Made by a program: the position numbers and the translations under genes | Part shown: positions 5,828-62,855 of the stretch, piece after piece | Position numbering within the stretch: the stretch's first letter is position 1 | Layout: every line of letters starts with the position of its first letter | Source: Candidatus Omnitrophota bacterium | Lineage (GTDB): Bacteria; Omnitrophota; Gorgyraeia; Gygaellales; Profunditerraquicolaceae | Assembly (NCBI GenBank): GCA_003598025.1 | Contig: QZKH01000003.1 | Location: forward strand, 42,048-106,047 | Direction of reading: 5' to 3' | Length of the DNA: 64,000 nucleotides | Notes under the pieces: generated by a model | What the model was told of the DNA's origin: nothing | The model's input: the letters and a program-made list of their open reading frames with translations, nothing else | The model's database searches: none

Positions 5828-5900
5828 GCCGGCGTAGCTCAGTCGGTAGAGCAGCTGTTTTGTAAACAGCGGGTCGGGGGTTCGATTCCTCTCGCCGGCT
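5828..5900 (+). tRNA. tRNA-Thr (anticodon UGU)
   Basis: Cloverleaf folded by hand. Acceptor GCCGGCG/CGCCGGC, anticodon stem GCTGT/ACAGC, loop TTTGTAA, T-loop TTCGATT. 73 nt. Confidence 0.85.
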
Positions 5901-6027
5901 TAAATGAGGCCACAACTTATGGAGCAAATGAAATGAGCGAACATAAGTTGTTTGGCCGAATTTATCCCGAGTGTACGAAGCAGATTTATTGAAATCTGCG
6001 AGTGCTTACACGAGGGATGTAAAATGA

Positions 6028-6110
6028 TAGTTCATAGTTGATAGTTCATTGTTCATGGATATTGGTATATTTCTATGAACCTTGAACCATGAACTAATAT
6101 GATATGAACA
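6028..6110. repeat. Family-A palindromic repeat element. Left arm of GTTCATAG-type units, right arm of CTATGAAC/CATGAAC units.
   Basis: tagttcatagttgatagttcattgttcatgg ... ctatgaaccttgaaccatgaactaatatgatatgaac. Same architecture as the copies at 36109, 51739, 53418, 57776, 57938 and 59371. Confidence 0.75.
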
Positions 6111-6231
6111 CCCGAACCGAAAGGGGTGTGGGGAATTTCCCCACGTTGTCGGGGTGACAGCGAACATAGTGAGCGCCATAGGGGCAGAGCCCCTATGGAG
6201 AGCGAGCGGTGATTGAAGACTTGGCGAGCGA

Positions 6232-6262
6232 GGGTCGGGGGTTCGATTCCTCTCGCCGGCTT
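6232..6262 (+). repeat. 31-nt direct repeat of the 3' end of tRNA-Thr (T-arm plus acceptor 3' strand). Partner copy at 5871-5901.
   Basis: GGGTCGGGGGTTCGATTCCTCTCGCCGGCTT is identical at both sites. 330 bp of non-coding, hairpin-rich DNA lies between them. No upstream 5' acceptor strand, so this is not a second tRNA. Confidence 0.8.
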
Positions 6263-6263
6263 T

Positions 6264-6334
6264 ACAAAGTCACCAAGTCACAAGGACACACGTCACAAGT
6301 TTATGTGACGTTGTGACTTTGTGTCATTGTGACA
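6264..6334. repeat. Family-B palindromic repeat element. Left arm of GTCACAAG/GACACA units, right arm of TGTGAC/CTTTGTG units.
   Basis: caaagtcaccaagtcacaaggacacacgtcacaag ttta tgtgacgttgtgactttgtgtcattgtgac. Confidence 0.75.
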
Positions 6335-6359
6335 AACACTATTTTTGTTATATTGTTTC

Positions 6360-10876: not shown

Positions 10877-10953
10877 CGGGGAGTAGCGCAGTTTGGCTAG
10901 CGCGTTTGAATGGGGTTCAAAAGGTCGTGGGTTCAAGTCCCACCTCCCCGACC
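10877..10953 (+). tRNA. tRNA-Pro (anticodon GGG). CCA encoded.
   Basis: Acceptor CGGGGAG/CTCCCCG, anticodon stem TTTGA/TCAAA with loop ATGGGGT, T-arm GTGGGTTCAAGTCCCAC, then ACCA. Confidence 0.85.
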
Positions 10954-11076
10954 AAAGTTCTCTTGTGATGTTTGAGATGTGAGCTTTGGCCATGAGTAGC
11001 CATATTTGTTGACGATTAGTACAAGAGATTTGAGAAAAAATTTTAATTCGAAATATTATCACGAAAGGAGAAATCT

Positions 11077-14492: not shown

Positions 14493-15694
14493 AATATATT
14501 GTATTAGTCGGAGATGGCATGGCGGATTATCAGATTGAAGAGTTAGGTAACCGCACCCCTCTGGAAGCAGCCAAGACTCCAAATATGGATTATATCTGCA
14601 AGTATGGCAAGATCGGGCTGGCTAGGACTATCCCTGAAAATATGACCCCTGCTTCTGATGTAGCCAATATCTCTATATTAGGATATAACCCTAAAGAATA
14701 CTATTCAGGCAGGGGGCCTCTTGAAGCCGCTAACTTAGGTATAGAGCTTGAAAGCGATGATGTTGCTTTCCGTTGTAATTTAGTTACAGTCCTTGATGAT
14801 ACGATGGTTGATTATAGCGCCGGTCATATAAGCTCAAGGGAAGCCGCGTTAATAATAAAATTTATTGATGATAACCTCGGCAGCAATAAGATTAAATTTT
14901 ATCCGGGTGTTGGTTACAGGCATCTGATGGTTGTAAAACGCGGCGCAGAATCTCATTGGCATGAATTAGAATGTAGGGCTCCCCACGATATTACCGGGCA
15001 GAAGATTACGAAAAATTTTCCAAGAGGCGAGGGTTCAGACAAGCTTATAAAAATAATGCAGGACTCGCGTCCCCTCCTTGAAAACCATGAGATTAATATT
15101 GTCAGGGTTGACCTTAAAGAGAACCCGGCTAATATGATCTGGTTATGGGGGCAGGGCAGGAAGCCGGCTATGCCAAAGTTCTACGATAAATACGGGATAA
15201 ATGGAAGCGTTATTTCGGCAGTCGATTTAATAAAAGGATTGGGCAGGATATTGGGCCTGGAAGTTATCAATGTGAAAGGCGCAACAGGCTATTATGATAC
15301 AGATTATTTAGGAAAGGCAAAAGCCGCTCTGGCATCTCTTAAGGATAATGATTTTGTATTTGTGCATGTGGAGGCACCCGATGAAGCGGGGCACAATGGG
15401 GACTTAAGAGAGAAGCTTACAGCCATAGAGAGATTTGATCAGCTTATCGTTGGGACGATACTCGAAGCTTTTAAGAATAGAAAGGATTTTAGGATCATGG
15501 TATTGCCGGACCATCCTACTCCCATAGCTTTAAAGACACATTCAAGTGATATGGTCCCATTTGCTGTTTTTGGAAAAGACATTGTGCCTTCAGGCGCAGG
15601 ATCGTTCAGCGAGAAAGAAGCAGCTGCATCAGGTTTTTCTTTTGAAAGAGCGCATGAGCTTATGGATTATCTTATAAAAGGCCAGTATAAATGA
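14489..15694 (+). CDS. apgM: 2,3-bisphosphoglycerate-independent phosphoglycerate mutase, archaeal-type
   Basis: MKYIVLVGDGMADY N-terminus and metalloenzyme-superfamily motifs. 401 aa. Confidence 0.85.
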   Translation: MKYIVLVGDGMADYQIEELGNRTPLEAAKTPNMDYICKYGKIGLARTIPENMTPASDVANISILGYNPKEYYSGRGPLEAANLGIELESDDVAFRCNLVTVLDDTMVDYSAGHISSREAALIIKFIDDNLGSNKIKFYPGVGYRHLMVVKRGAESHWHELECRAPHDITGQKITKNFPRGEGSDKLIKIMQDSRPLLENHEINIVRVDLKENPANMIWLWGQGRKPAMPKFYDKYGINGSVISAVDLIKGLGRILGLEVINVKGATGYYDTDYLGKAKAALASLKDNDFVFVHVEAPDEAGHNGDLREKLTAIERFDQLIVGTILEAFKNRKDFRIMVLPDHPTPIALKTHSSDMVPFAVFGKDIVPSGAGSFSEKEAAASGFSFERAHELMDYLIKGQYK

Positions 15695-20143: not shown

Positions 20144-22945
20144 ATGGCTATAGAGCTTTCAAAGCAGTATAATCCTCACGAAGTTGAGGACAAATGGTAT
20201 TTTGACTGGGAAAAAAACGGGTATTTTAAAACCTCCCCGTCTAAGAACAGAATCCCTTTTTGTATAGTTATCCCTCCGCCTAATGTGACGGGTATTTTGC
20301 ACATGGGGCATGCTTTAAATAATACGATACAAGATATTCTTATCCGGTACCACCGCATGAATGGCGAGGCTGCTCTATGGATGCCGGGCACAGATCATGC
20401 CGGCATTGCTACTCAGAACGTCGTTGAAAAAAGTTTGGCAAGGGAGAATATTAAACGCCAGGATTTAGGCAGGGAAAAGTTTATTGAAAAAGTGTTATTA
20501 TGGAAAGACAAATACGGCTCTACGATAATTCATCAGCTTAAGAAACTGGGTGCTTCCTGTGATTGGTCAAGGGAGCGTTTTACTATGGATGAAGCGTATT
20601 CCAGGGCGGTAAAACATGTATTTGTGCGTTTGTGGGACAAGGGGCTTATTTATCAAGGGGATAAGATAATTAACTGGTGTCCTCGCTGCCAGACAGCTTT
20701 ATCTGATGAAGAAGCACCGCATCATGAACTTGATGGTCATCTTTATTATTTGAAATATCCTTTGAAGGCCGATCCTGATACTTTCATTATTGTGGCTACT
20801 ACCAGGCCGGAAACAATGCTTGGAGATACAGCCGTCGCAGTTAACCCCAGGGATAAAAGATATAAAAAATTCTTGAATAAAATCCTGTTATTGCCTTTGG
20901 TTGGCAGGGAGATAAAAGTAATCGGCGATAGTTCAGTGGATATGAAATTCGGAACCGGTGCTGTAAAAGTTACACCTGCCCATGATCCGAATGACTATAT
21001 AATGGGCAATAGGCATAAACTGAAATTTGTAAATGTTATGTATCCGGATGGCCGGATGAATGAGAATGCCGGAGAGTATAAGGGTATGGATAGGTTTGAG
21101 GCACGGGAAGTGATTATAGAAGACCTCAGAGAAAAAGGATTACTGGATAAAATAGAGCCACATGCGCTTTCTGCCGGGCATTGTTATCGTTGCCACACTA
21201 TAATTGAACCGTATCTTTCAAGGCAATGGTTCGTTAAGATGTCCCCTTTGGCAAAACCGGCAATAGAAGCTGTGAAAAAAGGTAAAATCAAATTCCATCC
21301 TAAAAGATGGACTAAGGTATATCTTAACTGGATGGAAAATATACAGGATTGGTGTATTTCACGGCAGATATGGTGGGGGCATCGCCTGCCGGTATATTAT
21401 TGTAAGGAATGTATAAAGAATGCCGGCGAGTTCACGGTTCATAGTTCACAGTTCACAGGTAAGAATAAAGCCGGTATTATAGTTTCTGAAACTAAGCTGG
21501 ATAAATGTCCTAAGTGCGGTTCATCGGATATACATCAGGAAGAAGATGTTTTAGATACATGGTTTTCTTCCTGGCTATGGCCTTTTGCTACTTTTTATTG
21601 GCCGGATTTTCAAAAGCAATCAGCCATCAGCCATCAGCCATCAGCTTTCAGCTCTCAGCTGGATAGTCTACAGTCTACCGTGCACAGTCCACCGTCCACA
21701 GACAAAGATATTTCTGCCAGGCTCAAGGCGGATTTGGATTATTTTTATCCTACATCCACTCTTGTAACTGCACCTGAGATTATCTTCTTTTGGGTAGCCA
21801 GAATGATTATGGCGGGCATGGAGTTTATGCATAATGTCCCCTTTAAGGATGTTTACATCCATGGCACAGTGCGCGATATAGAAGGCAAGAAAATGTCTAA
21901 ATCCCTGGGTAATATTATAGACCCGCTTGAGATTATAAGCCAGTACGGTGCTGATGCCCTTCGCTTTAGCCTCATATCGATTACTTCTCAGGGGCAGGAT
22001 GTATATCTTTCTAAGGACAGGTTCGAGCAGGGCAGGAATTTCGCGAATAAGCTTTGGAATGCATCGCGTTTTATACTGATGAATATGGAAGAGGCAGACT
22101 CAGGCAAAGTTAACCAAATACGTCAAAACAGCACTAATATCGTAAATAAATGGATATTAAGCAGGTACAATTCCACAATAAAACAGGTTTCATCTTATCT
22201 TAATGCATATAAATTTAATGAAGCGGCAAATGCTATTTACGGTTTCTTCTGGCACGAGTTTTGTGATTGGTATCTTGAGATTATAAAGCCGAATATAAAA
22301 GATGATGAAAGCCGGGTAATTACGCGTATTATCCTTGAGGGTACCCTTAAAATGCTGCATCCTTTCATGCCTTTTATAAGCGAAGAAATATGGCGGATGA
22401 TCCCCGGTAATACTTCTACTATAATGTTTAGCAGCTGGCCGGTTCATTCTGAGAAAGCAATAGACAAAAAGATAGAGGCCCGGGTTAATATGGTCTTTGA
22501 TGTGATTAGCAGCATAAGGAATATGCGTTCCGAGCTTGAAATAGCAGTAACTGATAAAATAAATGTTAAACTTTTTACCGGCAGCAAGCCGAATTTGGAA
22601 ACGCTTAATTTTATGAGCGGAGACATCAAATTAATGTCAAAGCTGGATAATCTCGAGATCTCTAAAGATTATAAGCCTCAGATTAACCAATATGCAAGCG
22701 TCCTAAAGGATATCCATATAATAATCCCATTGTCCGGAGTTATTGATGTAGAGAAATACCTGCTTAAACTGGGTAAGCGTATCCAGGAAGTTTCATCCCA
22801 GATTGAAGCAAAGGGCAGGACATTGGAAAATAAGGATTTTATCGCACGGGCACCAGCAGAAGTCATAAAGAAAGAACAGGATAAATTAGAAGAACTTAAA
22901 GAAACCCTGAACAAACTAAAGGTGGTGAAAGATGGTATTAAATGA
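20144..22945 (+). CDS. valS: Valine--tRNA ligase. Intact ORF that contains two in-frame short-repeat insertions.
   Basis: HMGH, KMSKS, DVLDTWFSS, FFWVARM. C-terminal coiled coil. 933 aa. Confidence 0.9.
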   Translation: MAIELSKQYNPHEVEDKWYFDWEKNGYFKTSPSKNRIPFCIVIPPPNVTGILHMGHALNNTIQDILIRYHRMNGEAALWMPGTDHAGIATQNVVEKSLARENIKRQDLGREKFIEKVLLWKDKYGSTIIHQLKKLGASCDWSRERFTMDEAYSRAVKHVFVRLWDKGLIYQGDKIINWCPRCQTALSDEEAPHHELDGHLYYLKYPLKADPDTFIIVATTRPETMLGDTAVAVNPRDKRYKKFLNKILLLPLVGREIKVIGDSSVDMKFGTGAVKVTPAHDPNDYIMGNRHKLKFVNVMYPDGRMNENAGEYKGMDRFEAREVIIEDLREKGLLDKIEPHALSAGHCYRCHTIIEPYLSRQWFVKMSPLAKPAIEAVKKGKIKFHPKRWTKVYLNWMENIQDWCISRQIWWGHRLPVYYCKECIKNAGEFTVHSSQFTGKNKAGIIVSETKLDKCPKCGSSDIHQEEDVLDTWFSSWLWPFATFYWPDFQKQSAISHQPSAFSSQLDSLQSTVHSPPSTDKDISARLKADLDYFYPTSTLVTAPEIIFFWVARMIMAGMEFMHNVPFKDVYIHGTVRDIEGKKMSKSLGNIIDPLEIISQYGADALRFSLISITSQGQDVYLSKDRFEQGRNFANKLWNASRFILMNMEEADSGKVNQIRQNSTNIVNKWILSRYNSTIKQVSSYLNAYKFNEAANAIYGFFWHEFCDWYLEIIKPNIKDDESRVITRIILEGTLKMLHPFMPFISEEIWRMIPGNTSTIMFSSWPVHSEKAIDKKIEARVNMVFDVISSIRNMRSELEIAVTDKINVKLFTGSKPNLETLNFMSGDIKLMSKLDNLEISKDYKPQINQYASVLKDIHIIIPLSGVIDVEKYLLKLGKRIQEVSSQIEAKGRTLENKDFIARAPAEVIKKEQDKLEELKETLNKLKVVKDGIK
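21428..21459 (+). repeat. Family-A octamer tandem (GTTCACGG GTTCATAG TTCACAG TTCACAGG) lying inside the valS coding sequence
   Basis: gagttcacggttcatagttcacagttcacagg is translated in frame as EFTVHSSQFTG. Confidence 0.8.
21618..21662 (+). repeat. CAGCCAT x3 / CAGCTTTCAGCTCTCAGCTG tandem repeat inside valS. Related in reverse complement to 47042-47074.
   Basis: atcagccatcagccatcagccatcagctttcagctctcagctgg encodes SAISHQPSAFSSQLD. This stretch is absent from canonical ValRS between WP(E/D) and FYPTS. Confidence 0.8.
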
Positions 22946-32494: not shown

Positions 32495-32632
32495 AGATTC
32501 ATAGTTGATTATTCATAGCTGAAGTCACAAAGACACCAGTCACAAAGACACAAAATTATTGATTTTTATTTTAGTTTTGTACGTTTATTTGTGACCTTGT
32601 GACATTGTGGCGTGTGTCCCATATAAACGTAT
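32495..32632. repeat. Composite repeat locus. Short family-A units followed by a family-B palindrome with an AT-rich centre.
   Basis: attcatagttgattattcatag then gtcacaaagacaccagtcacaaagacacaa ... gtgaccttgtgacattgtggcgtgtgtcc. Confidence 0.7.
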
Positions 32633-36086: not shown

Positions 36087-36108
36087 ACATTAATGGCATA
36101 AGTAGATT

Positions 36109-36388
36109 AGTTCATGGTTCATAGTTCACGGTTCACAGAATAGCGTTTACCAGTTGAATAGTTGGTTCGTTGAACCGAAGAAGCCTGGATTAACGAATAA
36201 ACTATTAAACGAATCAACGATTTAACTATGCTTTTCTTGTGATTTTGCGACCTTAGGCCTTCGACACTGCTCAGGCCGAGGGAGTCCTGAGCGTTTTATG
36301 GTGAGTGAAGTCGAACCAAGCCGAAGGATGTCTTTGTGACTAGATACTCTTCATGTCTATGAACTATGCTCTATGAACTGTGAACCAG
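36109..36388. repeat. Large palindromic family-A element. GTTCA-unit arm at 36109-36138 and TGAAC-unit arm at 36356-36388, enclosing about 215 bp of structured sequence.
   Basis: agttcatggttcatagttcacggttcacag ... ctatgaactatgctctatgaactgtgaaccag. The interior contains a family-B unit gtctttgtgac. Confidence 0.65.
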
Positions 36389-36508: not shown

Positions 36509-36781
36509 ATGACAAAAAAAGATATTATTTTAAGAATATCCGATGAGACCAACATCAAACAGATTGCGGTAAAAAAGGTCGTCCAAAAGACCTTTGACTA
36601 TATTATTGAAGCTCTGATAAGAGGAGAAAAGATAGAGCTGCGTAACTTCGGTGTTTTTAAGATAAAACAAAGAAAAAGCCGTACCGGAAGGAACCCTCGT
36701 ACAGGCCAGGTAGTCCCCGTCCCTCCAAGAAAAGTGGTCATTTTTAAACCAGGCCTTGAAATGAAAAAGAAGGTTATTTAA
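36509..36781 (+). CDS. hup: HU/IHF family nucleoid-associated DNA-binding protein
   Basis: RNFGVFKIKQRKSRTGRNPRTGQVVPVPPRKVVIFKPG beta-arm. 90 aa. Confidence 0.9.
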   Translation: MTKKDIILRISDETNIKQIAVKKVVQKTFDYIIEALIRGEKIELRNFGVFKIKQRKSRTGRNPRTGQVVPVPPRKVVIFKPGLEMKKKVI

Positions 36782-47041: not shown

Positions 47042-47185
47042 TGGCTGATAGCTGAGAGCGGATAGCTGAAAGCTGCATTTGTTCACAGTTCATGGTTCAT
47101 AGAAATGACTAGAGTAGTTAGTCACAAAGACACACGACACAAGGACACAAAAATCTTGAGTTCACTATTCACATTTCACGGATTG
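47042..47185. repeat. Composite repeat locus: GGCTGATAGCTGAGAGCGGATAGCTGAAAGCTG (reverse complement of the valS 21618 repeat), then family-A octamers, then the family-B left arm, then TTCAC units
   Basis: ggctgatagctgagagcggatagctgaaagctg catttgttcacagttcatggttcatag ... gtcacaaagacacacgacacaaggacacaa ... gagttcactattcacatttcacgg. Confidence 0.75.
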
Positions 47186-51738: not shown

Positions 51739-51848
51739 GTTCACTGTATTGGTTCATAGTTCATTGTTCATAGTTCATAGAGCTGTCCTTACGTCCATGA
51801 ACTCTGAACTAATCTATGAACTTTGAACCATCAACCATGAACTAATAA
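51739..51848. repeat. Family-A palindromic element filling the whole nfnB-panB spacer
   Basis: GTTCATAGTTCATTGTTCATAGTTCATAGAGCTGTCCTTACGTCCATGAAC. This ~50-nt core is identical to 59374-59423. Confidence 0.8.
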
Positions 51849-51861
51849 TGAGGCAATAGTT

Positions 51862-52689
51862 ATGGAAAAAATAACAGTAAAGAATATCTTGGCGCTTAAA
51901 AGTCAGCGCAAAATCACTATGCTTACCGCGTATGATTATCCTTTCGGCCAATTTGTAGATAAAGCAGGCATAGATATGATTTTAGTCGGGGATTCTTTGG
52001 CCAATGTTGTCTTAGGGCTGGATTCTACTACCAAAGTCGGTATGCCTGAAATGCTTCATCATGCTAAAGCAGTTGCCAGGGCAGTAAAGCGGGCGTTAAT
52101 AATCGGTGATATGCCTTTCGAATCATATCAGATTAATACAGAAGAGTCGGTTGTAAATGCGCGAAGATTTATAGAAGAAGCAAACTGCGATGCCGTTAAG
52201 CTTGAATGGTTTGACAAGTGTCTTGAAGTCACCGAGAGCATAGTTAAATCAGGTATAGACGTAATGGGCCATATCGGGCTCACTCCTCAGACAGCCGAAA
52301 AGCAGGGCGGATTCAAAGTCCAGGGTAAGGATGCCGAGGCGGCTCAGAAGATAATCCAGCAGGCGCTTGCTTTAGAAAAATGCGGGTGTTTTGCTTTAGT
52401 GCTTGAATGTGTACCTGACAGAATAGCGGAGATGATAACCCAAAAATTAAAGATACCGACTATCGGTATCGGCGCAGGCCCTTATTGTGACGGGCAGGTA
52501 TTGGTTATTCATGACATGCTTGGTTTGTTTGAAAGATACACGCCAAAGTTCGTAAAGAAATATGTTGATCTCTCCGGATTAATAACCGAGGCGATCACAA
52601 ATTATAAAAATGACGTACTTGAAGGTAAGTTTCCTTCCAAGGAGCACACTTTTACTATAAAAGAAGATGAAGTCAAGAAAATCCGGTAA
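51862..52689 (+). CDS. panB: 3-methyl-2-oxobutanoate hydroxymethyltransferase
   Basis: MLTAYDYPFGQFVDKAGIDMILVGDSLANVVLG. 275 aa. Confidence 0.9.
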   Translation: MEKITVKNILALKSQRKITMLTAYDYPFGQFVDKAGIDMILVGDSLANVVLGLDSTTKVGMPEMLHHAKAVARAVKRALIIGDMPFESYQINTEESVVNARRFIEEANCDAVKLEWFDKCLEVTESIVKSGIDVMGHIGLTPQTAEKQGGFKVQGKDAEAAQKIIQQALALEKCGCFALVLECVPDRIAEMITQKLKIPTIGIGAGPYCDGQVLVIHDMLGLFERYTPKFVKKYVDLSGLITEAITNYKNDVLEGKFPSKEHTFTIKEDEVKKIR

Positions 52690-53419
52690 TTTCGTTAATT
52701 TTCTTAAATTAGTATGGATAATTATTGCTTGGCTCTTGATAATAGCTTCGCTGGGAGTCTTTATAGTAAAATACGCAGGGCCGCCGATATTAAAGTCATA
52801 TGTGAGAATGGGTGTAGGGGATTGCCGAAGGCTGCCTGTACTATGCGTAAGTTTTGATAAAGGCGTATATCACTCAAATATTGATGAAGAATTTATCTCT
52901 TTGCTTGCAGTCTATAGTTTCCCGGGCATGGAGATCAGACTGCCTAAGAATTTCCTCGCCGTGAAAGAGAAGATAAATAAAGTCTATTATAAACGCAGGA
53001 AAGTAGAATTAAATTCCAAGCCGACTGCTTACCTGCTTAGCCAGCCGCCGGGTTTCTTCGTCAATCTCTTCCCTGAGGTCAAGCGTTTTGGTGTTGAGAG
53101 TGATTATCAGTTTTATGAGAACCTCCTTGCTTCAAGATACGATAATTTAACGAGTATCAAAGATGCTTTTTTTATAATCATGAAATCAATATTTACTCCT
53201 GACCTTGGGCCCCAGGAAGATGTTAAGATGATAAAAGCAGAATGGCAGGCAATGACCGGTTTTATATCTTATAATCTGTCTGGAGAGACAAATTACTTTG
53301 ATTGTAATTTATTTGACAAGGCAGGAAATTATTCCAAAGTGTATATAAAGGATAAAAATAAAGAACTGACCCTGCAAAAGGTATATAGCATAATAAGTAC
53401 GCTGAAAACAGGGAATTAG
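52667..53419 (+). CDS. Hypothetical membrane-anchored protein
   Basis: Single N-terminal transmembrane segment. No recognisable motifs. 250 aa. Confidence 0.4.
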   Translation: MKSRKSGNFVNFLKLVWIIIAWLLIIASLGVFIVKYAGPPILKSYVRMGVGDCRRLPVLCVSFDKGVYHSNIDEEFISLLAVYSFPGMEIRLPKNFLAVKEKINKVYYKRRKVELNSKPTAYLLSQPPGFFVNLFPEVKRFGVESDYQFYENLLASRYDNLTSIKDAFFIIMKSIFTPDLGPQEDVKMIKAEWQAMTGFISYNLSGETNYFDCNLFDKAGNYSKVYIKDKNKELTLQKVYSIISTLKTGN

Positions 53420-53546
53420 TTCATACATTAGTTCATTGTTCATAGTTAATAGTTTATAGAAATATGCCATCTATCCATGAACTTTGAACTATGATCTATG
53501 AACCAATAAATCCATGAACTTTGAACCTTCAACCGTGAACTAATAT
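53418..53546. repeat. Family-A palindromic element, divergent copy
   Basis: gttcatacattagttcattgttcatagttaatag ... ccatgaactttgaactatgatctatgaacc ... catgaactttgaaccttcaaccgtgaactaat. Confidence 0.75.
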
Positions 53547-53588
53547 CTCCTTGACTTTTAACTTAAATTGAGATAAAAATAAAAAGCT

Positions 53589-54896
53589 ATGGCCGATAAT
53601 TTAATGGAAAATATAGTATCTTTATGCAAACGGCGCGGCTTTATCTTCCAATCCTCAGATATCTACGGCGGTTTGGCTAATACCTGGGATTACGGCCCTT
53701 ATGGGGTAGAGTTGAAGAATAACCTTAAACGTGCCTGGTGGAAGTCGGTAGTCTATGATAGGGATGATATCCTTGGGCTGGATGCCTCGATTTTAATGCA
53801 CCCAAGGGTCTGGGAGGCTTCTGGCCATGTGCAGAACTTTTTTGATTTAAAAAGTGATTGCAAGAAGTGCAAAAAGCGCTTTAAATCCGAAGACCTGAAA
53901 GGAAATAAAACTTGCCCGGAATGCGGCGGAGAATTGACAGAAGGCAGGCCGTTTAACCTGATGTTTAAGACTTACCAGGGCCCGGTTGAAGATGCGACTA
54001 ATCTTATTTATCTCAGGCCTGAGACCGCGCAAGGCATGTTCGTAAATTTCTCAAATATAATTGATTCAAAGCACCCTAAGCTTCCTTTTGGTTTGGCTCA
54101 AGTAGGCAAGTCATTCCGTAACGAGATAACCCCCGGTAATTTTACTTTCAGGACAAGAGAATTCGAGCAGATGGAGATCGAGTATTTTGTGAACCCTAAA
54201 GATGCGGATAAGAAATTGGAAGAGTGGATTGAGTACCGCTTTGAATGGTATTTGAACCTGGGTTTAAAAAAAGACAGTTTAAGGAAACGCAAACATGCCG
54301 AAAACGAATTGGCGCATTATGCTAAGGCATGTACCGATATCGAATATAATTTCCCATTTGGCTGGTCAGAACTCGAAGGCGTTGCAAACCGGACGGATTT
54401 TGATCTCAGGCAGCACTCAGAGGCAAGCGGCAAGGATTTAAGGTTCTTTGACGATTCAAGCAAGGAAAGGTTTTTCCCGTATATAATTGAGCCTTCCGGC
54501 GGAGTTGACAGGAGCGTATTGGCATTCTTGGTAGATGCATTTGCGCAGGAAAAGGTCAAGGATGATACAAGGGTTGTCTTAAAGCTGCATAAGGATCTGG
54601 CGCCGGTAAAGGTAGCTGTGCTGCCTTTGCTTAGGAATAAACCGGAGATTGTGGAGTTAGCAAAGAGAATCTCCCGGGAACTTAAGAAAGCATTTGTTAC
54701 TGTTTATGACGACACAGGCGCAATCGGCAAGCTCTACAGAAGGCAGGATGAAGTCGGCACGCTCTATTGTGTCACAATAGACGTCCAGTCCCTTGATGAT
54801 AAACAAGCTACAGTCAGGGACAGAGATACCATGAAGCAGGATAGGGTAGAAATTAATAATTTAAAAAAATATATTTTAGACAAAATATGTTCATGA
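53589..54896 (+). CDS. glyQS: Glycine--tRNA ligase, alpha2 dimeric (class II, eukaryote/archaeal-like) type
   Basis: RRGFIFQSSDIYGGLANTWDYGPYG. Anticodon-binding C-terminus. 435 aa. Confidence 0.85.
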   Translation: MADNLMENIVSLCKRRGFIFQSSDIYGGLANTWDYGPYGVELKNNLKRAWWKSVVYDRDDILGLDASILMHPRVWEASGHVQNFFDLKSDCKKCKKRFKSEDLKGNKTCPECGGELTEGRPFNLMFKTYQGPVEDATNLIYLRPETAQGMFVNFSNIIDSKHPKLPFGLAQVGKSFRNEITPGNFTFRTREFEQMEIEYFVNPKDADKKLEEWIEYRFEWYLNLGLKKDSLRKRKHAENELAHYAKACTDIEYNFPFGWSELEGVANRTDFDLRQHSEASGKDLRFFDDSSKERFFPYIIEPSGGVDRSVLAFLVDAFAQEKVKDDTRVVLKLHKDLAPVKVAVLPLLRNKPEIVELAKRISRELKKAFVTVYDDTGAIGKLYRRQDEVGTLYCVTIDVQSLDDKQATVRDRDTMKQDRVEINNLKKYILDKICS

Positions 54897-54906
54897 TTAT
54901 TAGATG

Positions 54907-54972
54907 GGTCACAAGGACACAAGACACAAGGACACAAAAAACTGTGACTTTGTGACGTGTGACTTTGTGACT
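54907..54972. repeat. Family-B palindromic element
   Basis: gtcacaaggacacaagacacaaggacacaa aaaac tgtgactttgtgacgtgtgactttgtgac. Confidence 0.8.
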
Positions 54973-55016
54973 GCTGATGATTTTGAGCTAAACAAAAAGG
55001 GAGGGTTTTAAAAGCA

Positions 55017-57773
55017 ATGGCAAAGTATGTTTACTTCTTTGGAGGGGGTAAGGCTGACGGCAATGAATCTATGAAGAATCTTTTGGGCGGCAAGGGCGCT
55101 AACCTTGCTGAAATGGCTGGAAGCAAAGATTTGAAGCTCCCTGTTCCCCCGGGATTTACTATTACTACAGATGTTTGCACATATTACTACGAACATAAAA
55201 GGGCTTATCCAAAAGGCTTAAACGAACAGGTAAAAGAAGCCCTTAAGAAAGTGGAGAAATTGATGGGCAGGGAATTCGGCGACTCCGAAAACCCGCTTTT
55301 GGTTTCCGTGCGTTCAGGCGCAAGGAGATCTATGCCAGGGATGATGGAAACAGTCCTTAATGTCGGCTTAACTGAAAAAACAATACCCGGACTCATAAAG
55401 CAGAGCGGCGGTAACAGCCGGTTTGTATATGATGCATACCGTCGTTTGATAATGATGTATTCTGATGTTGTCATGGAGAAGGCAGGCGGCATTGAGCCGA
55501 AAGATTCAGAATCCGGAATACGCAAACAGCTGGAAAAGATAATGTCGGAGTTAAAGAATGTCTTGGGGTATAAAACCGATACAGAGCTTACTTGTGATGA
55601 CTTAAAGAAGCTTTGCAGGTTATTTAAGGAGAAGGTCAAAGAAGTGCTCAAAAAAGAGTTTCCTGATGATCCATATGATCAGTTATGGGGAGGCATAGGA
55701 GCTGTGTTTGCATCGTGGAACGGTAAAAGAGCTATCAGCTATAGAAGGATAGAAAATATTCCTGATGAATGGGGTACAGCAGTAAATGTCCAGACAATGG
55801 TTTTTGGAAATATGGGCAATGATTCAGCAACAGGCGTAGCTTTTACAAGAAATCCCGGTAATGGAGAGGGGCAATTTTACGGTGAGTACCTTATTAATGC
55901 GCAGGGTGAAGATGTCGTCGCCGGTATAAGGACACCAGCGCCGATTAATAGCTATTCTACTTCAGAGCATAATAAAGAGATGCTTACTTTGGAAAAAGCC
56001 ATGCCAAAAATATACAGGCAGCTATTTGATATCCAGCTAAAGCTTGAGAAACATTACCATGATATGCAGGATATTGAGTTTACGATTGAAAAAGGCAGGC
56101 TATTTATGTTGCAGTGCAGGGTCGGCAAACGCAACGGCCCGGCAGCTGTGCGTATGGCTGTTGATATGGTCAAAGAAAAACTTATCAATAAAGAAACAGC
56201 CGCTTTAAGAGTGACTCCTGCCCAACTTGATGAGCTCTTGCATCCTGTAATAGACCCGAAGGCCGAAATAAAAAGCAAGCCGATAGCCAAGGGGTTGCCT
56301 GCAGGTCCGGGCGGTGCTACAGGGCAGATAGTTTTCTCTGCAAATGATGCGGTTGAATGGGCAAAAAAAGGCAAAAAAGTAATATTGGTAAGAGAAGAGA
56401 CTAATCCTGAGGATGTTGAAGGTATGCGTGCTGCTCAGGCTATACTTACTGCAAGAGGCGGCATGACATCGCATGCTGCGTTGGTTGCGCGCGGCTGGGG
56501 CAAATGCTGCATTGTAGGCTGCGGAGGTATCCATATTGAATATAACGAGAAGGAATTACATGCCGATGGCAAAGTATTAAAGGAAGGCGATTGGATTACT
56601 CTTAACGGCACAAAAGGCAATGTTTATGAAGGCCAGCTTCCTATGATGGATGCCGGGGAAGAGAACAAACTGTTAAGCAGTTTCTTGAGACTGTGCAGTT
56701 CTATCAAGAAATTAGGAGTGCGCACTAACGCAGATACCCCTGAAGATGCAAAGAGGGCAAGGCAATTCGGGGCAGAGGGTATTGGATTGTTCAGGACAGA
56801 GCATATGTTTTACGGAAAAGGCTCTGACCAACCGCTATTTCTTTTGCGTAAAATGATTGTTTCTAAGACTGAGGCTGAGAGGAAGAAGGCGCTTGGCGAA
56901 TTGTTCCCTTATGTAAAAAAAGATATTAAAGGGACCCTTGAAGCTATGGACGGTTTTCCTGTGGTCTTCAGGCTGCTTGATCCTCCGTTGCATGAATTTG
57001 TCCCGCGCGAAGAGTCAAAGTTGAATGAGTTAGCAAAAGAATTGAATATCAGCCTTGATGAACTGCGTTCCCGCGCCGAGGCTTTACATGAGTCTAATCC
57101 GATGATGGGGCACCGCGGAGTCCGTTTAGGCGTTACTTATCCTGAAATAAGCTCTATGCAGATAGAAGCTATATTTGAAGCTGCAGCTGAACTTATCCAG
57201 GAAGGCAAAAAACCCTATCCGGAGATAATGATACCGGTTGTCTGCGATGTAAAAGAATTGCAGGACCAGCTTGTAATTGCAAAGACAGTTTACCAGAGTG
57301 TGCTTAAGAAATATAATTTAAAAAATATAAAACATATGTTTGGGACAATGATAGAAGTCCCCCGCGCAACATTGGTTGCTGATAAGCTTGCAAGCGTTGC
57401 CCAATTCTTCTCTTTCGGGACCAACGACCTTACACAGATGGGTTTTGGTTTCTCAAGAGACGATATCGGCGGATTCTTGCCGCATTACCTTAATAAGGGC
57501 ATACTCCCTGAAGACCCGTTTCAGAGTATTGACCAGGAAGGTATTGGCGAGTTGATTAAGATAGGAATTAATAAAGGCCGCTCTGCCTCACCGAAGCTTG
57601 AAGTCGGTATCTGCGGAGAGCATGGAGGAGAGCCTAAATCAGTTGAGTTCTGCCATAAAGTAGGCATGGATTATGTAAGCTGTTCTCCTTTTAGGGTGCC
57701 TATCGCCATACTTGCCGCATCCCAGGCAGAGTTGAAGGATAAGGCTAAGGAGAAGGGGAAGAAGAAAAAGTAA
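55017..57773 (+). CDS. ppdK: Pyruvate, phosphate dikinase
   Basis: PEP-utilising-enzyme phosphohistidine region GGMTSHAALVARGWG and C-terminal TIM barrel. 918 aa. Confidence 0.9.
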   Translation: MAKYVYFFGGGKADGNESMKNLLGGKGANLAEMAGSKDLKLPVPPGFTITTDVCTYYYEHKRAYPKGLNEQVKEALKKVEKLMGREFGDSENPLLVSVRSGARRSMPGMMETVLNVGLTEKTIPGLIKQSGGNSRFVYDAYRRLIMMYSDVVMEKAGGIEPKDSESGIRKQLEKIMSELKNVLGYKTDTELTCDDLKKLCRLFKEKVKEVLKKEFPDDPYDQLWGGIGAVFASWNGKRAISYRRIENIPDEWGTAVNVQTMVFGNMGNDSATGVAFTRNPGNGEGQFYGEYLINAQGEDVVAGIRTPAPINSYSTSEHNKEMLTLEKAMPKIYRQLFDIQLKLEKHYHDMQDIEFTIEKGRLFMLQCRVGKRNGPAAVRMAVDMVKEKLINKETAALRVTPAQLDELLHPVIDPKAEIKSKPIAKGLPAGPGGATGQIVFSANDAVEWAKKGKKVILVREETNPEDVEGMRAAQAILTARGGMTSHAALVARGWGKCCIVGCGGIHIEYNEKELHADGKVLKEGDWITLNGTKGNVYEGQLPMMDAGEENKLLSSFLRLCSSIKKLGVRTNADTPEDAKRARQFGAEGIGLFRTEHMFYGKGSDQPLFLLRKMIVSKTEAERKKALGELFPYVKKDIKGTLEAMDGFPVVFRLLDPPLHEFVPREESKLNELAKELNISLDELRSRAEALHESNPMMGHRGVRLGVTYPEISSMQIEAIFEAAAELIQEGKKPYPEIMIPVVCDVKELQDQLVIAKTVYQSVLKKYNLKNIKHMFGTMIEVPRATLVADKLASVAQFFSFGTNDLTQMGFGFSRDDIGGFLPHYLNKGILPEDPFQSIDQEGIGELIKIGINKGRSASPKLEVGICGEHGGEPKSVEFCHKVGMDYVSCSPFRVPIAILAASQAELKDKAKEKGKKKK

Positions 57774-57775
57774 CC

Positions 57776-57850
57776 TAGTTCATTGTTCGTAGTTCATAGG
57801 GTCGTCCTTAGTCCATGAACCATGAACTAATCTATGGATTATGAACCGAT
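57776..57850. repeat. Family-A palindromic element, upstream flank of tRNA-Arg
   Basis: tagttcattgttcgtagttcatag ggtcgtccttagtc catgaaccatgaactaatctatggattatgaac. Confidence 0.75.
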
Positions 57851-57857
57851 TGATTGC

Positions 57858-57931
57858 GCCCCTGTAGCTCATAAGGATAGAGCAACGGTTTCCTAAACCG
57901 TGTGCGGCAGGTTCGATTCCTGCCAGGGGCA
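57858..57931 (+). tRNA. tRNA-Arg (anticodon CCU)
   Basis: Acceptor GCCCCTG/CAGGGGC, anticodon stem ACGGT/ACCGT with loop TTCCTAA, T-arm GCAGGTTCGATTCCTGC. 74 nt. Confidence 0.8.
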
Positions 57932-57937
57932 GTTTAC

Positions 57938-58030
57938 TTAGTTCATAGAGCTGTCCATACGTCCATGAACTATCAACCATGAACCTTGAACTAATCTATA
58001 AACCTTGAACCATCAACCATGAACTAATCT
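57938..58030. repeat. Family-A palindromic element, downstream flank of tRNA-Arg. Ends at the sigma-factor ATG.
   Basis: ttagttcatagagctgtccatacgtccatgaactatcaaccatgaaccttgaactaatctataaaccttgaaccatcaaccatgaactaatct then ATG. Confidence 0.75.
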
Positions 58031-58849
58031 ATGGAAGCCTTAAAATCATACCTCAAAGATATAAGAAGCATACGGCTTTTGACTGCCGAAGATGAAGTCC
58101 GCCTTAGCAAAAGGGTTAAAAAAGGCGATGAGATGGCGCGTAAAGAGATGATCAGGGCCAACCTGCGCCTTGTAATAAACATAGCTAAGAGATATATGTA
58201 TTTAGGTATACCTTTGCTCGACCTGATAGAAGAAGGCAATCTTGGCTTAATGAAGGCCGTGGATAAATTTGACCATAAAAAAGGTTTCAGGTTTTCTACT
58301 TATGCTGCCTGGTGGATAAAACAGGCTATAACCCGCTCAATATCTGAGCAGGGTAAGACTATCAGGGTCCCTGTGTATATGAGTGAAATAATAAGCAAGT
58401 GGAAGAAGGCAAAGGAGCATCTTTCGCAGAAACTTAAGCGTATACCGAACGACGAAGAGATCGCAAAGAATATAAAACTGCCTAAGGATAAGATTGAACA
58501 GGTTAATTTCTGGCTCACCAGTTCTACTTCCTCCCTTGAGGCTCCGGTGGGTGATGATAATGATAATCAGGTAATGGACCTGGTTGAAGATAAGACAGCC
58601 ATATCCCCAGATTCTACTATAGAGCGTTTACTGGATAAGGAGAGGGTGGATAATTTGCTGGAGATTATGACTGACAGGGAGAGGAACATACTGGACATGC
58701 GTTTCGGGCTTGCGCAAGGCAAACCGCATACGCTTGCAGAAGTGGCTGGCAAACTAAAGATTTCAAGGGAAAGGGTCCGTCAGATAGAAGAAGCAGCGCT
58801 TAGAAAATTAAGAAGGTTTGTTGAACAGCAGGAAAAGGAGTTAAAATGA
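58031..58849 (+). CDS. RNA polymerase sigma factor, sigma-70 family (regions 2-4, no region 1.1; RpoD/RpoS-like)
   Basis: DLIEEGNLGLMKAVDKFD, FSTYAAWWIKQAITRSI, region 4 HTH LAEVAGKLKISRERVRQIE. 272 aa. Confidence 0.8.
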   Translation: MEALKSYLKDIRSIRLLTAEDEVRLSKRVKKGDEMARKEMIRANLRLVINIAKRYMYLGIPLLDLIEEGNLGLMKAVDKFDHKKGFRFSTYAAWWIKQAITRSISEQGKTIRVPVYMSEIISKWKKAKEHLSQKLKRIPNDEEIAKNIKLPKDKIEQVNFWLTSSTSSLEAPVGDDNDNQVMDLVEDKTAISPDSTIERLLDKERVDNLLEIMTDRERNILDMRFGLAQGKPHTLAEVAGKLKISRERVRQIEEAALRKLRRFVEQQEKELK

Positions 58850-59370
58850 GCGGGGAATTTGATTTTAAGAAATATATCCGAGACATTCCCGATTTTCCCA
58901 AAAAAGGGATAATCTTTAAAGATATAACCACGCTTTTAAAAGATAAGAAAGCCTTTAAGGCGGCCGTAGAAATTATCGCCGATAAATTTAAGGGTAAAAA
59001 AATAGATATTGTTATGGCTGTTGAATCAAGAGGTTTTATCTTAGGGGCAGCTGTTGCCAACCGGCTTAATGCCGGCTTTGTCCCTGTCCGCAAAAAAGGC
59101 AAGCTTCCGTGGCAGACGATATCTGCAAGTTATGAGCTTGAATACGGCACGGATACGCTTGAGGTGCACAAAGATGCCTTAAAGAAGGGCGACAGAGTCT
59201 TATTAGTCGATGATTTAATAGCTACAGGCGGGACTGCCGGAGCGGTTATAGATTTAATTAAGCAGCTTGAAGGCAAGATCTGCGGTATTGCTTTTTTGAT
59301 TGAGTTGGCTTTTCTTAACGGAAAAGAAAAACTTAAAGGGTATCCGGTTTATTCTTTGATTAAATATTGA
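58846..59370 (+). CDS. apt: Adenine phosphoribosyltransferase
   Basis: DFPKKGIIFKDIT and the PRPP site VLLVDDLIATGGT. 174 aa. Confidence 0.9.
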   Translation: MSGEFDFKKYIRDIPDFPKKGIIFKDITTLLKDKKAFKAAVEIIADKFKGKKIDIVMAVESRGFILGAAVANRLNAGFVPVRKKGKLPWQTISASYELEYGTDTLEVHKDALKKGDRVLLVDDLIATGGTAGAVIDLIKQLEGKICGIAFLIELAFLNGKEKLKGYPVYSLIKY

Positions 59371-59483
59371 GTGTTCATAGTTCATTGTTCATAGTTCATA
59401 GAGCTGTCCTTACGTCCATGAACCTTGAACCATCAATTATGAACTAATCTATGAACCTTGAACTACCAACCATGAACTAATCC
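59371..59483. repeat. Family-A palindromic element. Its last unit supplies the ATG of the next gene.
   Basis: gtgttcatagttcattgttcatagttcatagagctgtccttacgtccatgaaccttgaacc...catgaactaatccATG. Confidence 0.8.
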
Positions 59484-60140
59484 ATGTACAACCTCCATTC
59501 CCACACACTACTAAGCGACGGGGTGCTTCTTCCGTCAGAACTGGCAATGAGGCATTTTTCTCTCGGATATAAAGCCTTAGCCATAACAGACCATGTTGAT
59601 TACAGCAATATTGAGCATGTAACGGATTCCATTATCAGGTTTGTTAAGGCCTGGCCCAAAAACCTGGGTATAAAAGTATTATCGGGCATAGAATTGACAC
59701 ATCTGCCTTTAGAACAGGTAGGTTTATTAACTAAATACGCCAGAAAGAAAGGCATCCAGGTTATAGTGGCGCACGGCCAAACCCCGGCGGAGCCGGTTTT
59801 AAAAGGATTCAACCGCGCGGCAATAGAGGCTGGTATAGACATTCTGGCTCATCCCGGCCAAATCACGGAAGAAGAAGTTCTGCTTGCCAAAAAATTTGGT
59901 GTTTTCCTGGAAATAACCACCAGAAAAGGGCACAAGATAACAAACAGCCACGTGTTAAAAACGGCATTAAATGTCGGCGCAAAAATAATCGTTAATACTG
60001 ATTGCCATGCCCCCGAGGATATATTAGGCCGTGATGCGATGAATGTATTCTATGCTGAAACCGGTATTTCTGAAAATGAAATTAATAAAATAAACTCTGA
60101 TGTAGAAGAACATTTTTTCAATCAAAGGAGGAGGTGCTGA
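59484..60140 (+). CDS. PHP-family metal-dependent phosphoesterase (histidinol-phosphatase-like)
   Basis: MYNLHSHTLLSDG PHP N-terminal HxH motif and internal His/Asp ligands. 218 aa. Confidence 0.65.
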   Translation: MYNLHSHTLLSDGVLLPSELAMRHFSLGYKALAITDHVDYSNIEHVTDSIIRFVKAWPKNLGIKVLSGIELTHLPLEQVGLLTKYARKKGIQVIVAHGQTPAEPVLKGFNRAAIEAGIDILAHPGQITEEEVLLAKKFGVFLEITTRKGHKITNSHVLKTALNVGAKIIVNTDCHAPEDILGRDAMNVFYAETGISENEINKINSDVEEHFFNQRRRC

Positions 60141-62317: not shown

Positions 62318-62324
62318 ATTACCA

Positions 62325-62355
62325 CGTCACAAAGTCACACGTCACAAAGTCACAA
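62325..62355. repeat. Family-B left arm, immediately upstream of the four-helix-bundle gene
   Basis: cgtcacaaagtcacacgtcacaaagtcacaa. Confidence 0.8.
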
Positions 62356-62357
62356 TT

Positions 62358-62711
62358 ATGGATAAAGGATACAAAAAACTTTTAGTTTGGCAGAAGGCAG
62401 ATGAATTAGCTTTACAAATTTATCTTGAGACAAAGCGATTCCCTAAAGATGAAATATATGGTGTTACTTCCCAATTAAGAAGAGCGGCTATCTCTGTCCC
62501 CACCAATATCGCTGAAGGCTCAGGTAGGCAAAACAAATCAGAATCTAAACAATTCATAAATATTTCTTTAGGCTCTTTAGCCGAAACCGAGTATTTATTA
62601 GAATTCTGTTTCCGTCTTAAATACTTAGATGAAGAAAATTTTAATAGGTTAGAAGAATTACGGAATGATGTTGGCGCCTTACTTTGGAATCTTTATAAAA
62701 GCTTTACGTAA
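62358..62711 (+). CDS. Four-helix-bundle protein of the 23S rRNA intervening-sequence protein family
   Basis: 117 aa. Typical LLVWQKA...L...Y..T..FPK.E.YGLTSQLRRAA.S...NIAEG N-terminal pattern of that family. Confidence 0.7.
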   Translation: MDKGYKKLLVWQKADELALQIYLETKRFPKDEIYGVTSQLRRAAISVPTNIAEGSGRQNKSESKQFINISLGSLAETEYLLEFCFRLKYLDEENFNRLEELRNDVGALLWNLYKSFT

Positions 62712-62781
62712 AAGTAAAATAAGTTGTTTCTTTTTGCTTTTGTGACCAGCTGCTTTTGAATAGTCAATCGTTTTCTTAACT

Positions 62782-62813
62782 TTTGTGTCCTTGTGACCTT
62801 GTGTCCTTGTGAC
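62782..62813. repeat. Family-B right arm (inverted partner of 62325-62355), downstream of the four-helix-bundle gene
   Basis: tttgtgtccttgtgaccttgtgtccttgtgac. Confidence 0.8.
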
Positions 62814-62855
62814 CCATTACTTTATAGTATGCTATATCTCTCTTTTATCTTCCAC

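Follow-up and report, generated by a model that had tools for sequence, protein, structure and literature searches.

The 64,000-nucleotide (nt) stretch of Candidatus Omnitrophota contig QZKH01000003.1 analyzed here (below, "the window" means this stretch at its full length) carries a family of intergenic repeats, Family A, in which tandem heptanucleotides form two opposed arms. We favor, with a probability of about 0.5, the reading that Family A consists of dispersed, lineage-specific imperfect palindromes that were gained by copying and that may serve as processed hairpins or as leaders of the genes behind them. A two-arm design with a gene of the PF05635 family (23S rRNA intervening-sequence protein, Avd-like) in its loop is also present in the window, and for PF05635 genes in metagenomes that design is the rule.

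Family A is a real and oriented repeat family

The sequence GTTCATWG occurs 26 times in the window, compared with 3.25 expected occurrences (standard deviation, 1.8), and none of 100 dinucleotide-preserving shuffles reached 26. The ten-base end motif ATGAACTAAT is found nine times, against 0.18 expected. Since it lies on the plus strand at right ends or module ends (six cases) and on the minus strand at left ends (three cases), ATTAGTTCAT/ATGAACTAAT is the terminal inverted repeat of Family A. A profile built from six aligned copies and searched on both strands with nhmmer recovered six full copies (6024-6118, 51745-51847, 53424-53545, 57774-57849, 57933-58029, and 59370-59482), with 64 to 106 bits on the plus strand versus 22 to 44 bits on the minus strand; the elements thus have an orientation, which in all six is that of the genes. 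Tandem Repeats Finder (TRF) reported period-7 repeats of 3.4 to 4.4 copies at 6027, 36110, 51752, 53429, 57776, and 59373.

These results confirm the central claim of an earlier, sequence-only reading of this DNA, namely, that an abundant repeat family with alignable copies is enriched here beyond chance. That reading counted at least eight loci of the same architecture, of which six proved to be full copies, whereas the region at 36106-36385 is split and the loci at 47081 and 32498 have left arms only. The loci are as follows.

6024 to 6118, plus strand: Family A copy 1, between tRNA-Thr and a duplicated tRNA 3' end; 65.1 bits; hairpin of -26.4 kcal/mol, z = -4.19.
51739 to 51847, plus strand: Family A copy 2, beginning right behind the stop codon of the upstream oxidoreductase gene; 103.1 bits; fold z = -4.71.
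53415 to 53545, plus strand: Family A copy 3; 85.4 bits; fold z = -3.40.
57776 to 57849, plus strand: Family A copy 4, short, with one right-arm module, located between the PPDK stop codon and tRNA-Arg(CCT); 64.2 bits; -22.9 kcal/mol, z = -3.48.
57938 to 58030, plus strand: Family A copy 5, with one left unit and a long, two-module right arm; 81.1 bits; weak sense fold, z = -2.62.
59371 to 59483, plus strand: Family A copy 6, sharing a 51-nt core with copy 2; 106.2 bits; fold z = -4.84.
36106 to 36385, plus strand: split Family A copy, with its left arm at 36106-36138 and its right arm at 36357-36385, about 220 nt apart; upstream of the HU promoter.
47044 to 47102, plus strand: GCTGATA-type array (47044-47075) followed by a left-arm-only Family A array (47081-47102); no significant hairpin, z = -0.36.
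32498 to 32612, plus strand: left arm of Family A in degenerate form (32498-32519), with a GTCACAA/TTGTGAC palindrome (Family B) behind it, upstream of dnaE; fold z = -2.54.

The partial Family A arrays of the window number three: the two left arms at 47081-47102 and 32498-32519 and a third array at 21429-21458, inside the open reading frame (ORF) of valyl-tRNA synthetase (ValRS).

Copies are related as whole elements

Family A elements are A+T-rich and about 75 to 130 nt long. Each begins with ATTAG and one to four GTTCATW units, followed by a center of 15 to 20 nt (GAGCTGTCCTTACGTC in the youngest-looking copies) and a C/A-rich right arm about twice as long as the left one. The right arm comprises one or two modules, each made of two to four YWTSAAC units (catgaac, cttgaac, tatgaac, catcaac, and others) and closed by TAAT(C/A); the two arms are complementary, with regular mismatches. 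In copy 2, for example, the left arm (51752-51780) and center (51781-51796) are followed by two such modules.

Unit numbers vary from copy to copy, and the alignment places the right-arm modules of four copies in the same order. Copies 2 and 6, 7.6 kb apart, have in common an identical core, which had been put at about 50 nt from positions 51754 and 59374 and which we find to span 51 nt from 51752 and 59373. The proposed conserved center, AGCTGTCCTTACGTC, is present in three copies (51781 and 59402, and 57949 with one mismatch) and diverged in a fourth (57800), but it is absent from those at 6024, 53424, and 36106. The shared nonrepeat center, the modular right arm, and the 51-nt core all indicate that Family A copies are homologous as whole elements, beyond their repeat units.

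RNA folding of the six copies gave imperfect long hairpins, with z scores of -2.6 to -4.8 and with 0 to 3 of 200 shuffles folding equally well. In the split copy, the arms close a long-range stem in the minimum-free-energy (MFE) fold (z = -4.67 for the whole region); a PF05635 remnant was looked for between 36106 and 36385, and none was found. The split-copy insert (36136-36356) holds nested arrays of its own (AACGAATA, 3.6 copies at 36192-36220) as well as G+C-rich hairpins.

Several other identities for the element were discarded. Intrinsic terminators do not apply, as the hairpins have no T-tract. An internal sigma-70 promoter was rejected because the gap between TTGAAC and TAATCY is only 14 nt and the promoter scan found no internal site. 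Integron attC sites follow the pattern GTTRRRY/RYYYAAC, which Family A units do not fit.

Family A is missing from syntenic relatives

Outside the window, the next relatives of its PPDK are 84% identical or less. Syntenic relatives are L121 (GCA_028717645.1) and L122 (GCA_964467905.1) (PPDK 84% identical, gene order shared with the window), in which the corresponding spacers are 16 to 150 nt long and free of arrays. Period-7/8 arrays number 21 in the window and 0 in both L121 and L122; a third relative, L203, has three, all of which flank PF05635 genes. Because the spacers of the syntenic relatives are short and element-free, the Family A copies are gains specific to this lineage.

In the window, PPDK and sigma-70 have the tRNA-Arg(CCT) gene (57858-57931) between them, with a Family A copy on either side of it; in L121 (about 10930-11005) and L203 (about 14600-14675), it follows the phosphoribosyltransferase gene. 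This shift is consistent with a rearrangement via recombination between repeat copies.

Elements abut start codons but do not supply them

Family A copies fill their host spacers almost completely. Copy 6 makes up the entire spacer from the TGA stop of the phosphoribosyltransferase gene to the ATG of the PHP gene at 59484 (ACTAATCC-ATG), and copy 5 is flush with the sigma-70 ATG at 58031 (ACTAATCT-ATG); neither junction contains a Shine-Dalgarno (SD) sequence, exactly as first described. The left terminal repeat of copy 3 (ATTAGTTCAT) includes the TAG stop (53417-53419) of the ORF at 52667-53419. An element does lie just upstream of panB, as proposed, but copy 2 ends 14 nt before the ATG at 51862 and an SD-like GAGG is kept in that interval. 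The left-arm-only array at 47081-47102 stops 2 nt short of the ApbE ATG at 47105. Altogether, four arrays end 0 to 2 nt from SD-less starts (47105, 58031, 59484, and 62358), and SD-less starts are common in the window, at about half of the genes.

The suggestion that the repeat's own ATG serves as the initiation codon did not hold up: relatives start the same genes with ATGGAA or ATGGAT and with ATGTAT, and for that reason the ATGs at 58031 and 59484 are the ancestral start codons, which the repeat abuts and does not donate. The right-end consensus CC-ATG-AAC-TAA-TCY-ATG (58019-58033 and 59472-59486) contains an in-frame, two-codon mini-ORF one codon before the sigma-70 and PHP starts, which could allow termination-reinitiation coupling.

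The sequence-only reading had also placed the elements inside 5' untranslated regions. Behind two copies, at 53424-53545 and 36106-36385, there are sigma-70-like promoters, namely, TTGACT-18-AAAAAT at 53551-53580 (copy 3, promoter scan) and TTGACA-17-TATTAT at about 36421 (split copy, by reading); these two copies therefore belong to the 3' side of the upstream unit. The TTGACT promoter-like box before the class II aminoacyl-tRNA synthetase (aaRS) gene is conserved (window, 53546-53588; L121, 5197-5250; L122, 8413-8561), and its -10-like box lies only about 8 to 10 nt before the ATG, which suggests that the class II aaRS mRNA is leaderless or nearly so in these Omnitrophota.

Other arrays and gene context in the window

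Family A shares the window with other hepta- or octamer arrays: at least four families (GTTCATW [Family A], GTCACAA, GCTGATA, and CAGTCCA types) are present, and arrays occupy 11 of the 17 spacers longer than 60 nt. Family B palindromes lie at 6270-6336, 32523-32609, and 54910-54972, and Family B arrays are paired at all four of their sites. Tandem TAACTGA or TCAGTTA was not found in the window. Arrays not yet listed are the following.

54910 to 54972, plus strand: Family B palindrome (CACAAGGA, 3.6 copies, and TGTGACTT, 3.9 copies) in the spacer between the class II aaRS gene and PPDK; -32.6 kcal/mol, z = -5.90.
6270 to 6336, plus strand: Family B palindrome upstream of tRNA-Tyr; fold of -29.1 kcal/mol.
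21429 to 21701, plus strand: three in-frame heptamer arrays in the ValRS gene (20144-22945), of GTTCAC/T (21429-21458), CAGCCAT (21615-21660), and CAGTCCA (21665-21701) type.

ValRS residues 489 to 529 form an insertion without a counterpart in Thermus thermophilus ValRS (1GAX).

All called genes of the window are on the plus strand, tightly packed and in many cases overlapping, and the GC skew is positive (+0.06 to +0.25) except in the last 2 kb; the whole window is therefore part of one replichore with an extreme gene-strand bias. The 50 ORFs scanned against Pfam (4 ORFs were left unscanned) are housekeeping genes, and no transposase, RAYT (repetitive extragenic palindromic [REP]-associated tyrosine transposase), reverse transcriptase, or Y1-transposase-like ORF was seen among them. 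Rfam 15 at the gathering threshold matched nothing but tRNA, and together with ARAGORN it yielded five tRNAs and no rRNA for the window. Near one of these, tRNA-Thr(TGT) (5828-5900), a 32-nt duplicate of the tRNA 3' end follows about 330 nt further on (6231-6262), with Family A copy 1 and G+C-rich hairpins (about 6110-6230) in between; the segment from 5828 to 6262 looks like the scar of an integration into a tRNA gene.

PF05635 genes in most loci are bracketed by complementary arrays

One two-arm element of the window encloses a gene.

62323 to 62814, plus strand: cargo-bearing cassette, composed of a left GTCACAA array (62323-62355), a PF05635/TIGR02436 gene (62358-62711), and an inverted TTGTGAC array (62783-62814).

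The gene product is a four-helix-bundle protein (Pfam PF05635, 1.3e-37; TIGR02436, 2.8e-34). The left array ends 2 nt before its ATG (62358), and the arms pair in the MFE fold with the ORF enclosed. Family A copies, for their part, contain no ORF and no PF05635 remnant. Two cassettes are found in L203 (14187-14599 and 17830-18275). One of them, with GTTAATC arms, occupies the same phosphoribosyltransferase-PHP spacer that is filled by copy 6 in the window; the other lies behind an alginate-export porin gene and is the orthologue of the window cassette (80% protein identity, GTCACAA arms). Family A has thus landed in spacers that PF05635 cassettes occupy as well. In its rate of evolution, the PF05635 gene is about as slow as PPDK.

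The survey of metagenomes covered 80 loci (L123 to L202) picked by PF05635 homology alone, 71 of them nonredundant. Among the nonredundant loci, a period-7/8 array lies within 150 nt upstream of the PF05635 gene in 51 of 61 and downstream of it in 48 of 66; the median distance from the end of the upstream array to the ATG is 17 nt. Allowing up to one mismatch, 23 of 45 loci have upstream units that are the reverse complement of the downstream ones, versus 2.3% of mismatched locus pairs, i.e., 22 times the null expectation, and when hairpin constructs were folded, 55 of 61 loci showed better pairing of the flanks than the shuffled control (P = 8e-10). Over all 80 loci, arrays cover 17.3% of the sequence beside the PF05635 gene versus 1.9% elsewhere; the tandem arrays are of period 7 in 128 cases, period 6 in 12, and period 8 in 51, and the unit sequence changes from one cassette to the next. 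In most metagenome loci, PF05635 genes are thus bracketed by mutually complementary arrays, an architecture that matches that of 23S rRNA intervening sequences (IVSs). Of 120 loci selected for GTTCATW arrays, only 3 hold a PF05635 gene, and the association therefore runs from gene to arrays and not from arrays to gene; the sole case seen of GTTCATA in this setting is a Pirellulales locus (L030) with three GTTCATA units, a PF05635 gene, and then inverted heptamers. A general link between arrays and PF05635 genes was not found in the literature searched, although one paper noted PF05635 genes wedged among cas genes (PMC3936711).

Family A belongs to a known but unexplained class

Heptanucleotide repeats of the short tandemly repeated repetitive (STRR) type were reportedly described in cyanobacteria by Mazel et al. 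in 1990. Like Family A, STRRs and long simple sequence repeats (LSSRs) have tandem 7-nt units and several families per genome and are mostly intergenic; Family A has the three or more head-to-tail 7-nt units (TRF) that define this group, and the arrays of the window are mainly intergenic and of several unit families, with the exception of the three ValRS arrays. STRRs and LSSRs are, however, described as simple direct arrays, whereas Family A is composite, with two arms, a shared center, and whole-element homology. In Proteobacteria, REP elements, bacterial interspersed mosaic elements (BIMEs), and REP-derived inverted repeats (REPINs) are abundant intergenic palindromes that are cotranscribed at operon junctions or 3' ends, have no target-site duplication, and show a strand or orientation bias; a REP itself is a single short, G+C-rich palindrome of 20 to 40 nt that is linked to a RAYT transposase. 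Family A resembles these elements as an abundant intergenic palindrome with an orientation bias and no visible target-site duplication, but differs in its length (about 75 to 130 nt), its 7-nt tandem units, its A+T-richness, and the lack of a RAYT among the scanned ORFs of the window. Measured against miniature inverted-repeat transposable elements (MITEs), it has the terminal inverted repeats and not the target-site duplication.

A closer relative in design was reported from Geobacter metallireducens, the spacers of which contain 24, 21, and 8 pairs of inverted tandem octa-, nona-, and heptanucleotide arrays (Aklujkar et al. 2009; PMC2700814 and supplement), labeled "predicted global regulator binding sites" of classes 1 to 3 and read as IHF/HU sites. 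There, too, three to five tandem units of 7 to 9 nt are paired with a reverse-complement array at a variable distance in the same spacer, as in the six full copies, the split copy, and Family B; the Geobacter arrays are likewise intergenic, including positions within operons (proB-proA and moaA-mosC), number tens per genome, and are absent from a sister species. The units are different (GTTGCTYN, TCTCCGTS[Y], and MTYCTGA), and the paper does not report an asymmetric right arm made of modules, arrays flush with start codons, or any link to PF05635 genes. TAACTGA heptamers lie just upstream of SD-less starts in Beggiatoaceae, Cyanobacteria, and Bacteroidetes (MacGregor 2015, PMC4679880). With Family A they share two to six tandem units, a mostly intergenic location, gene orientation, proximity to SD-less starts, a few occurrences inside ORFs, a patchy distribution across phyla, and the lack of a known mechanism; they differ in being direct arrays (with one inverted set among 170) of another unit, one that is not found in tandem in the window, and in having no conserved nonrepeat center.

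IVSs that carry an S23p/PF05635 ORF are known from Coxiella and Leptospira, where they sit in helix 25 or 45 of 23S rDNA and are excised by RNase III; in Coxiella, strain-variable tandem GACAGAT heptamers precede the S23p ORF inside the cleaved stem (PMC4990558). The cassette at 62323-62814 and 23 of 45 metagenome cassettes have this same design, with a terminal inverted-repeat stem around a PF05635 ORF. The IVS, however, is located in 23S rDNA, whereas the elements of the window, which has no rRNA, lie between protein and tRNA genes, and Family A lacks the ORF. The statement of the sequence-only reading that no described repeat family matches must therefore be revised: Family A is a new, well-defined family within the known, mechanistically unexplained class of hepta- and octanucleotide tandem arrays, as reported from Cyanobacteria, Bacteroidota, and Beggiatoaceae (PMC4679880) and from Geobacter (PMC2700814).

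Proposed mechanism and competing explanations

The scenario that we favor is one in which whole elements would be copied into spacers by a process that leaves no target duplication, after which the arms would drift in length by slippage in steps of 7 nt. Where no promoter intervenes, as in the run of PPDK, tRNA-Arg, sigma-70, phosphoribosyltransferase, and PHP genes and before panB, copies would be cotranscribed with their neighbors. The RNA hairpin would be tolerated and probably processed by RNase III, by analogy with the stems of rRNA IVSs, and the unpaired, C/A-rich distal module of the right arm, ending in ...CCATGAACTAATCY, might form an SD-less leader flush with the next start codon. 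The promoter-followed copies at 53424 and 36106 would sit at 3' ends and would not act as leaders.

A number of observations weigh against this scenario. No mobilizing enzyme is encoded among the 50 scanned ORFs, and the boundaries of seven copies, which are somewhat ambiguous, share no direct repeat that could be a target-site duplication. Over the six copies, compensatory change affects only 1 of 14 consensus pairs, so that covariation lends no support. In four of six copies it is the antisense strand that folds better (in copy 5, -26.4 versus -12.8 kcal/mol for the sense strand), and the same is true of the flanks of PF05635 genes (36 loci versus 25; P = 0.02); this stronger antisense folding does not favor simple selection for a stem in the sense RNA; when such selection was tested through G.U pairs, the trend was the opposite one, the antisense strand being more stable. 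The PF05635 cassettes of the window and L203 use GTCACAA and GTTAATC and not GTTCATW, and these cassettes therefore give no support, in this lineage, for a loaded cassette as the ancestor of Family A. Lastly, GTTCATW arrays elsewhere are mostly unpaired direct arrays: among 97 of them, an inverted partner lies within 300 nt downstream in 10 and upstream in 7, with a background of 4.8%.

Arrays of three GTTCATW units occur at upwards of 120 genome loci from over ten phyla, some with the two-arm layout of Family A, and on 26 viral contigs (L204 to L229, IMG/VR), some of them giant-virus bins (GVMAG). Three permuted, composition-matched control heptamers were found on 59, 22, and 21 viral contigs, the fetched loci hold 136 distinct units (340 tandem arrays of period 7, compared with 27 of period 6 and 47 of period 8), and a scan of the metagenome collection for the exact right-end module of Family A found nothing. 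GTTCATW itself is not special, and its occurrence across phyla is not evidence for horizontal spread of Family A: given the control frequencies, the large unit vocabulary, and the few inverted partners of arrays elsewhere, the shared heptamer is more plausibly one outcome of a general process of array formation than a sign that Family A was transferred.

Several other explanations compete with copied and processed hairpins. It is possible, if rather unlikely, that inverted hepta- or octanucleotide arrays and a PF05635 gene make up one widespread and hitherto unrecognized genetic unit, a "free-living" form of the 23S rRNA IVS, that Family A represents its cargo-less miniature derivatives, and that the PF05635 protein acts on the arrays. 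Such a unit would insert both between genes and into rDNA, harmlessly since its stem would be removed from the RNA, and the protein might, for example, bind the 7-nt units or, like Avd in diversity-generating retroelements, have a nuclease or reverse transcriptase as its partner; if true, this would explain the heptamer repeats and the function of the IVS protein at once. We consider it unlikely that the arrays are instead platforms for a protein that binds single-stranded nucleic acid, with one protein unit per 7 nt (ribosomal protein S1, Csp or CsrA-type proteins, or the PF05635 protein itself), so that binding would set translation and pairing would be secondary. The four arrays that end at SD-less starts and the upstream PF05635 arrays near their ATGs fit this idea, the similarly placed TAACTGA repeats had the same mechanism proposed for them (PMC4679880), and deletion of a heptamer repeat in Nostoc altered reporter expression (bioRxiv 10.1101/2022.06.06.494920); even so, at least 4 unrelated units in one genome and 136 across the fetched loci are hard to square with a single sequence-specific binder, two of the Family A copies precede promoters and not starts, and arrays also occur within the ValRS ORF. 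Equally doubtful is a MITE or a REP/REPIN-type element that a transposase or RAYT from another part of the genome would mobilize in trans. The sequence-only reading, which had proposed a MITE- or REP-like family, was right about a dispersed palindromic intergenic repeat that is homologous beyond simple repetition, and the terminal inverted repeats, the several near-identical copies missing from orthologous sites in relatives, and the uniform orientation, reminiscent of single-strand transposition systems, all point that way; against it stand the missing target-site duplications and enzymes, the fact that the "terminal repeats" are merely the outermost array units, and the absence of the exact right-end module from the metagenome collection scanned.

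Still less probable is a neutral by-product, in which replication slippage, favoring 7 nt, makes the arrays and occasional inverted duplication the palindromes, with neither dispersal nor function. Period 7 does dominate in every set, unit number differs among copies, two of the permuted control heptamers come close to GTTCATW on viral contigs and the third exceeds it, and heptamers are the most abundant class of long simple repeats (Mrazek et al. 2007, as summarized in PMC4679880), but slippage cannot produce a shared nonrepeat center, an identical 51-nt core at two sites 7.6 kb apart, or identically ordered right-arm modules in four copies, and the single orientation of all six copies and the reverse-complement pairing around PF05635 genes also speak against it. 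The least credible explanation is the earlier suggestion of a repeated operator, i.e., double-stranded DNA sites for a regulator or nucleoid protein reading TGAAC direct and inverted repeats. The units do offer TGAAC half-site-like sequences in both orders, the HU gene (36509-36781) adjoins one copy, and the Geobacter paper, as noted, read its paired arrays in just this way. In B-DNA, however, a 7-bp spacing places each site about 240 degrees around the helix from the one before, so that neighboring units face different sides; several copies lie stop-to-start within apparent operons with no space for a promoter, and the scan placed no promoter-like site inside the elements. The phasing, the many unrelated units that share one design, and the arrays in frame inside the essential ValRS gene led us to judge this suggestion unlikely.

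Significance

Reports of heptanucleotide arrays go back to 1990 in Cyanobacteria, with Bacteroidota, Beggiatoaceae, and Geobacter following, and neither a mechanism nor a function was established for them. To these the window adds a compact Omnitrophota genome in which arrays occupy most of the larger spacers, whole-element copies can be recognized, and relatives provide clean "empty" sites. The most interesting by-product is the association of PF05635 genes with arrays, which ties together heptamer repeats, rRNA intervening sequences, and the Avd-like four-helix-bundle family.

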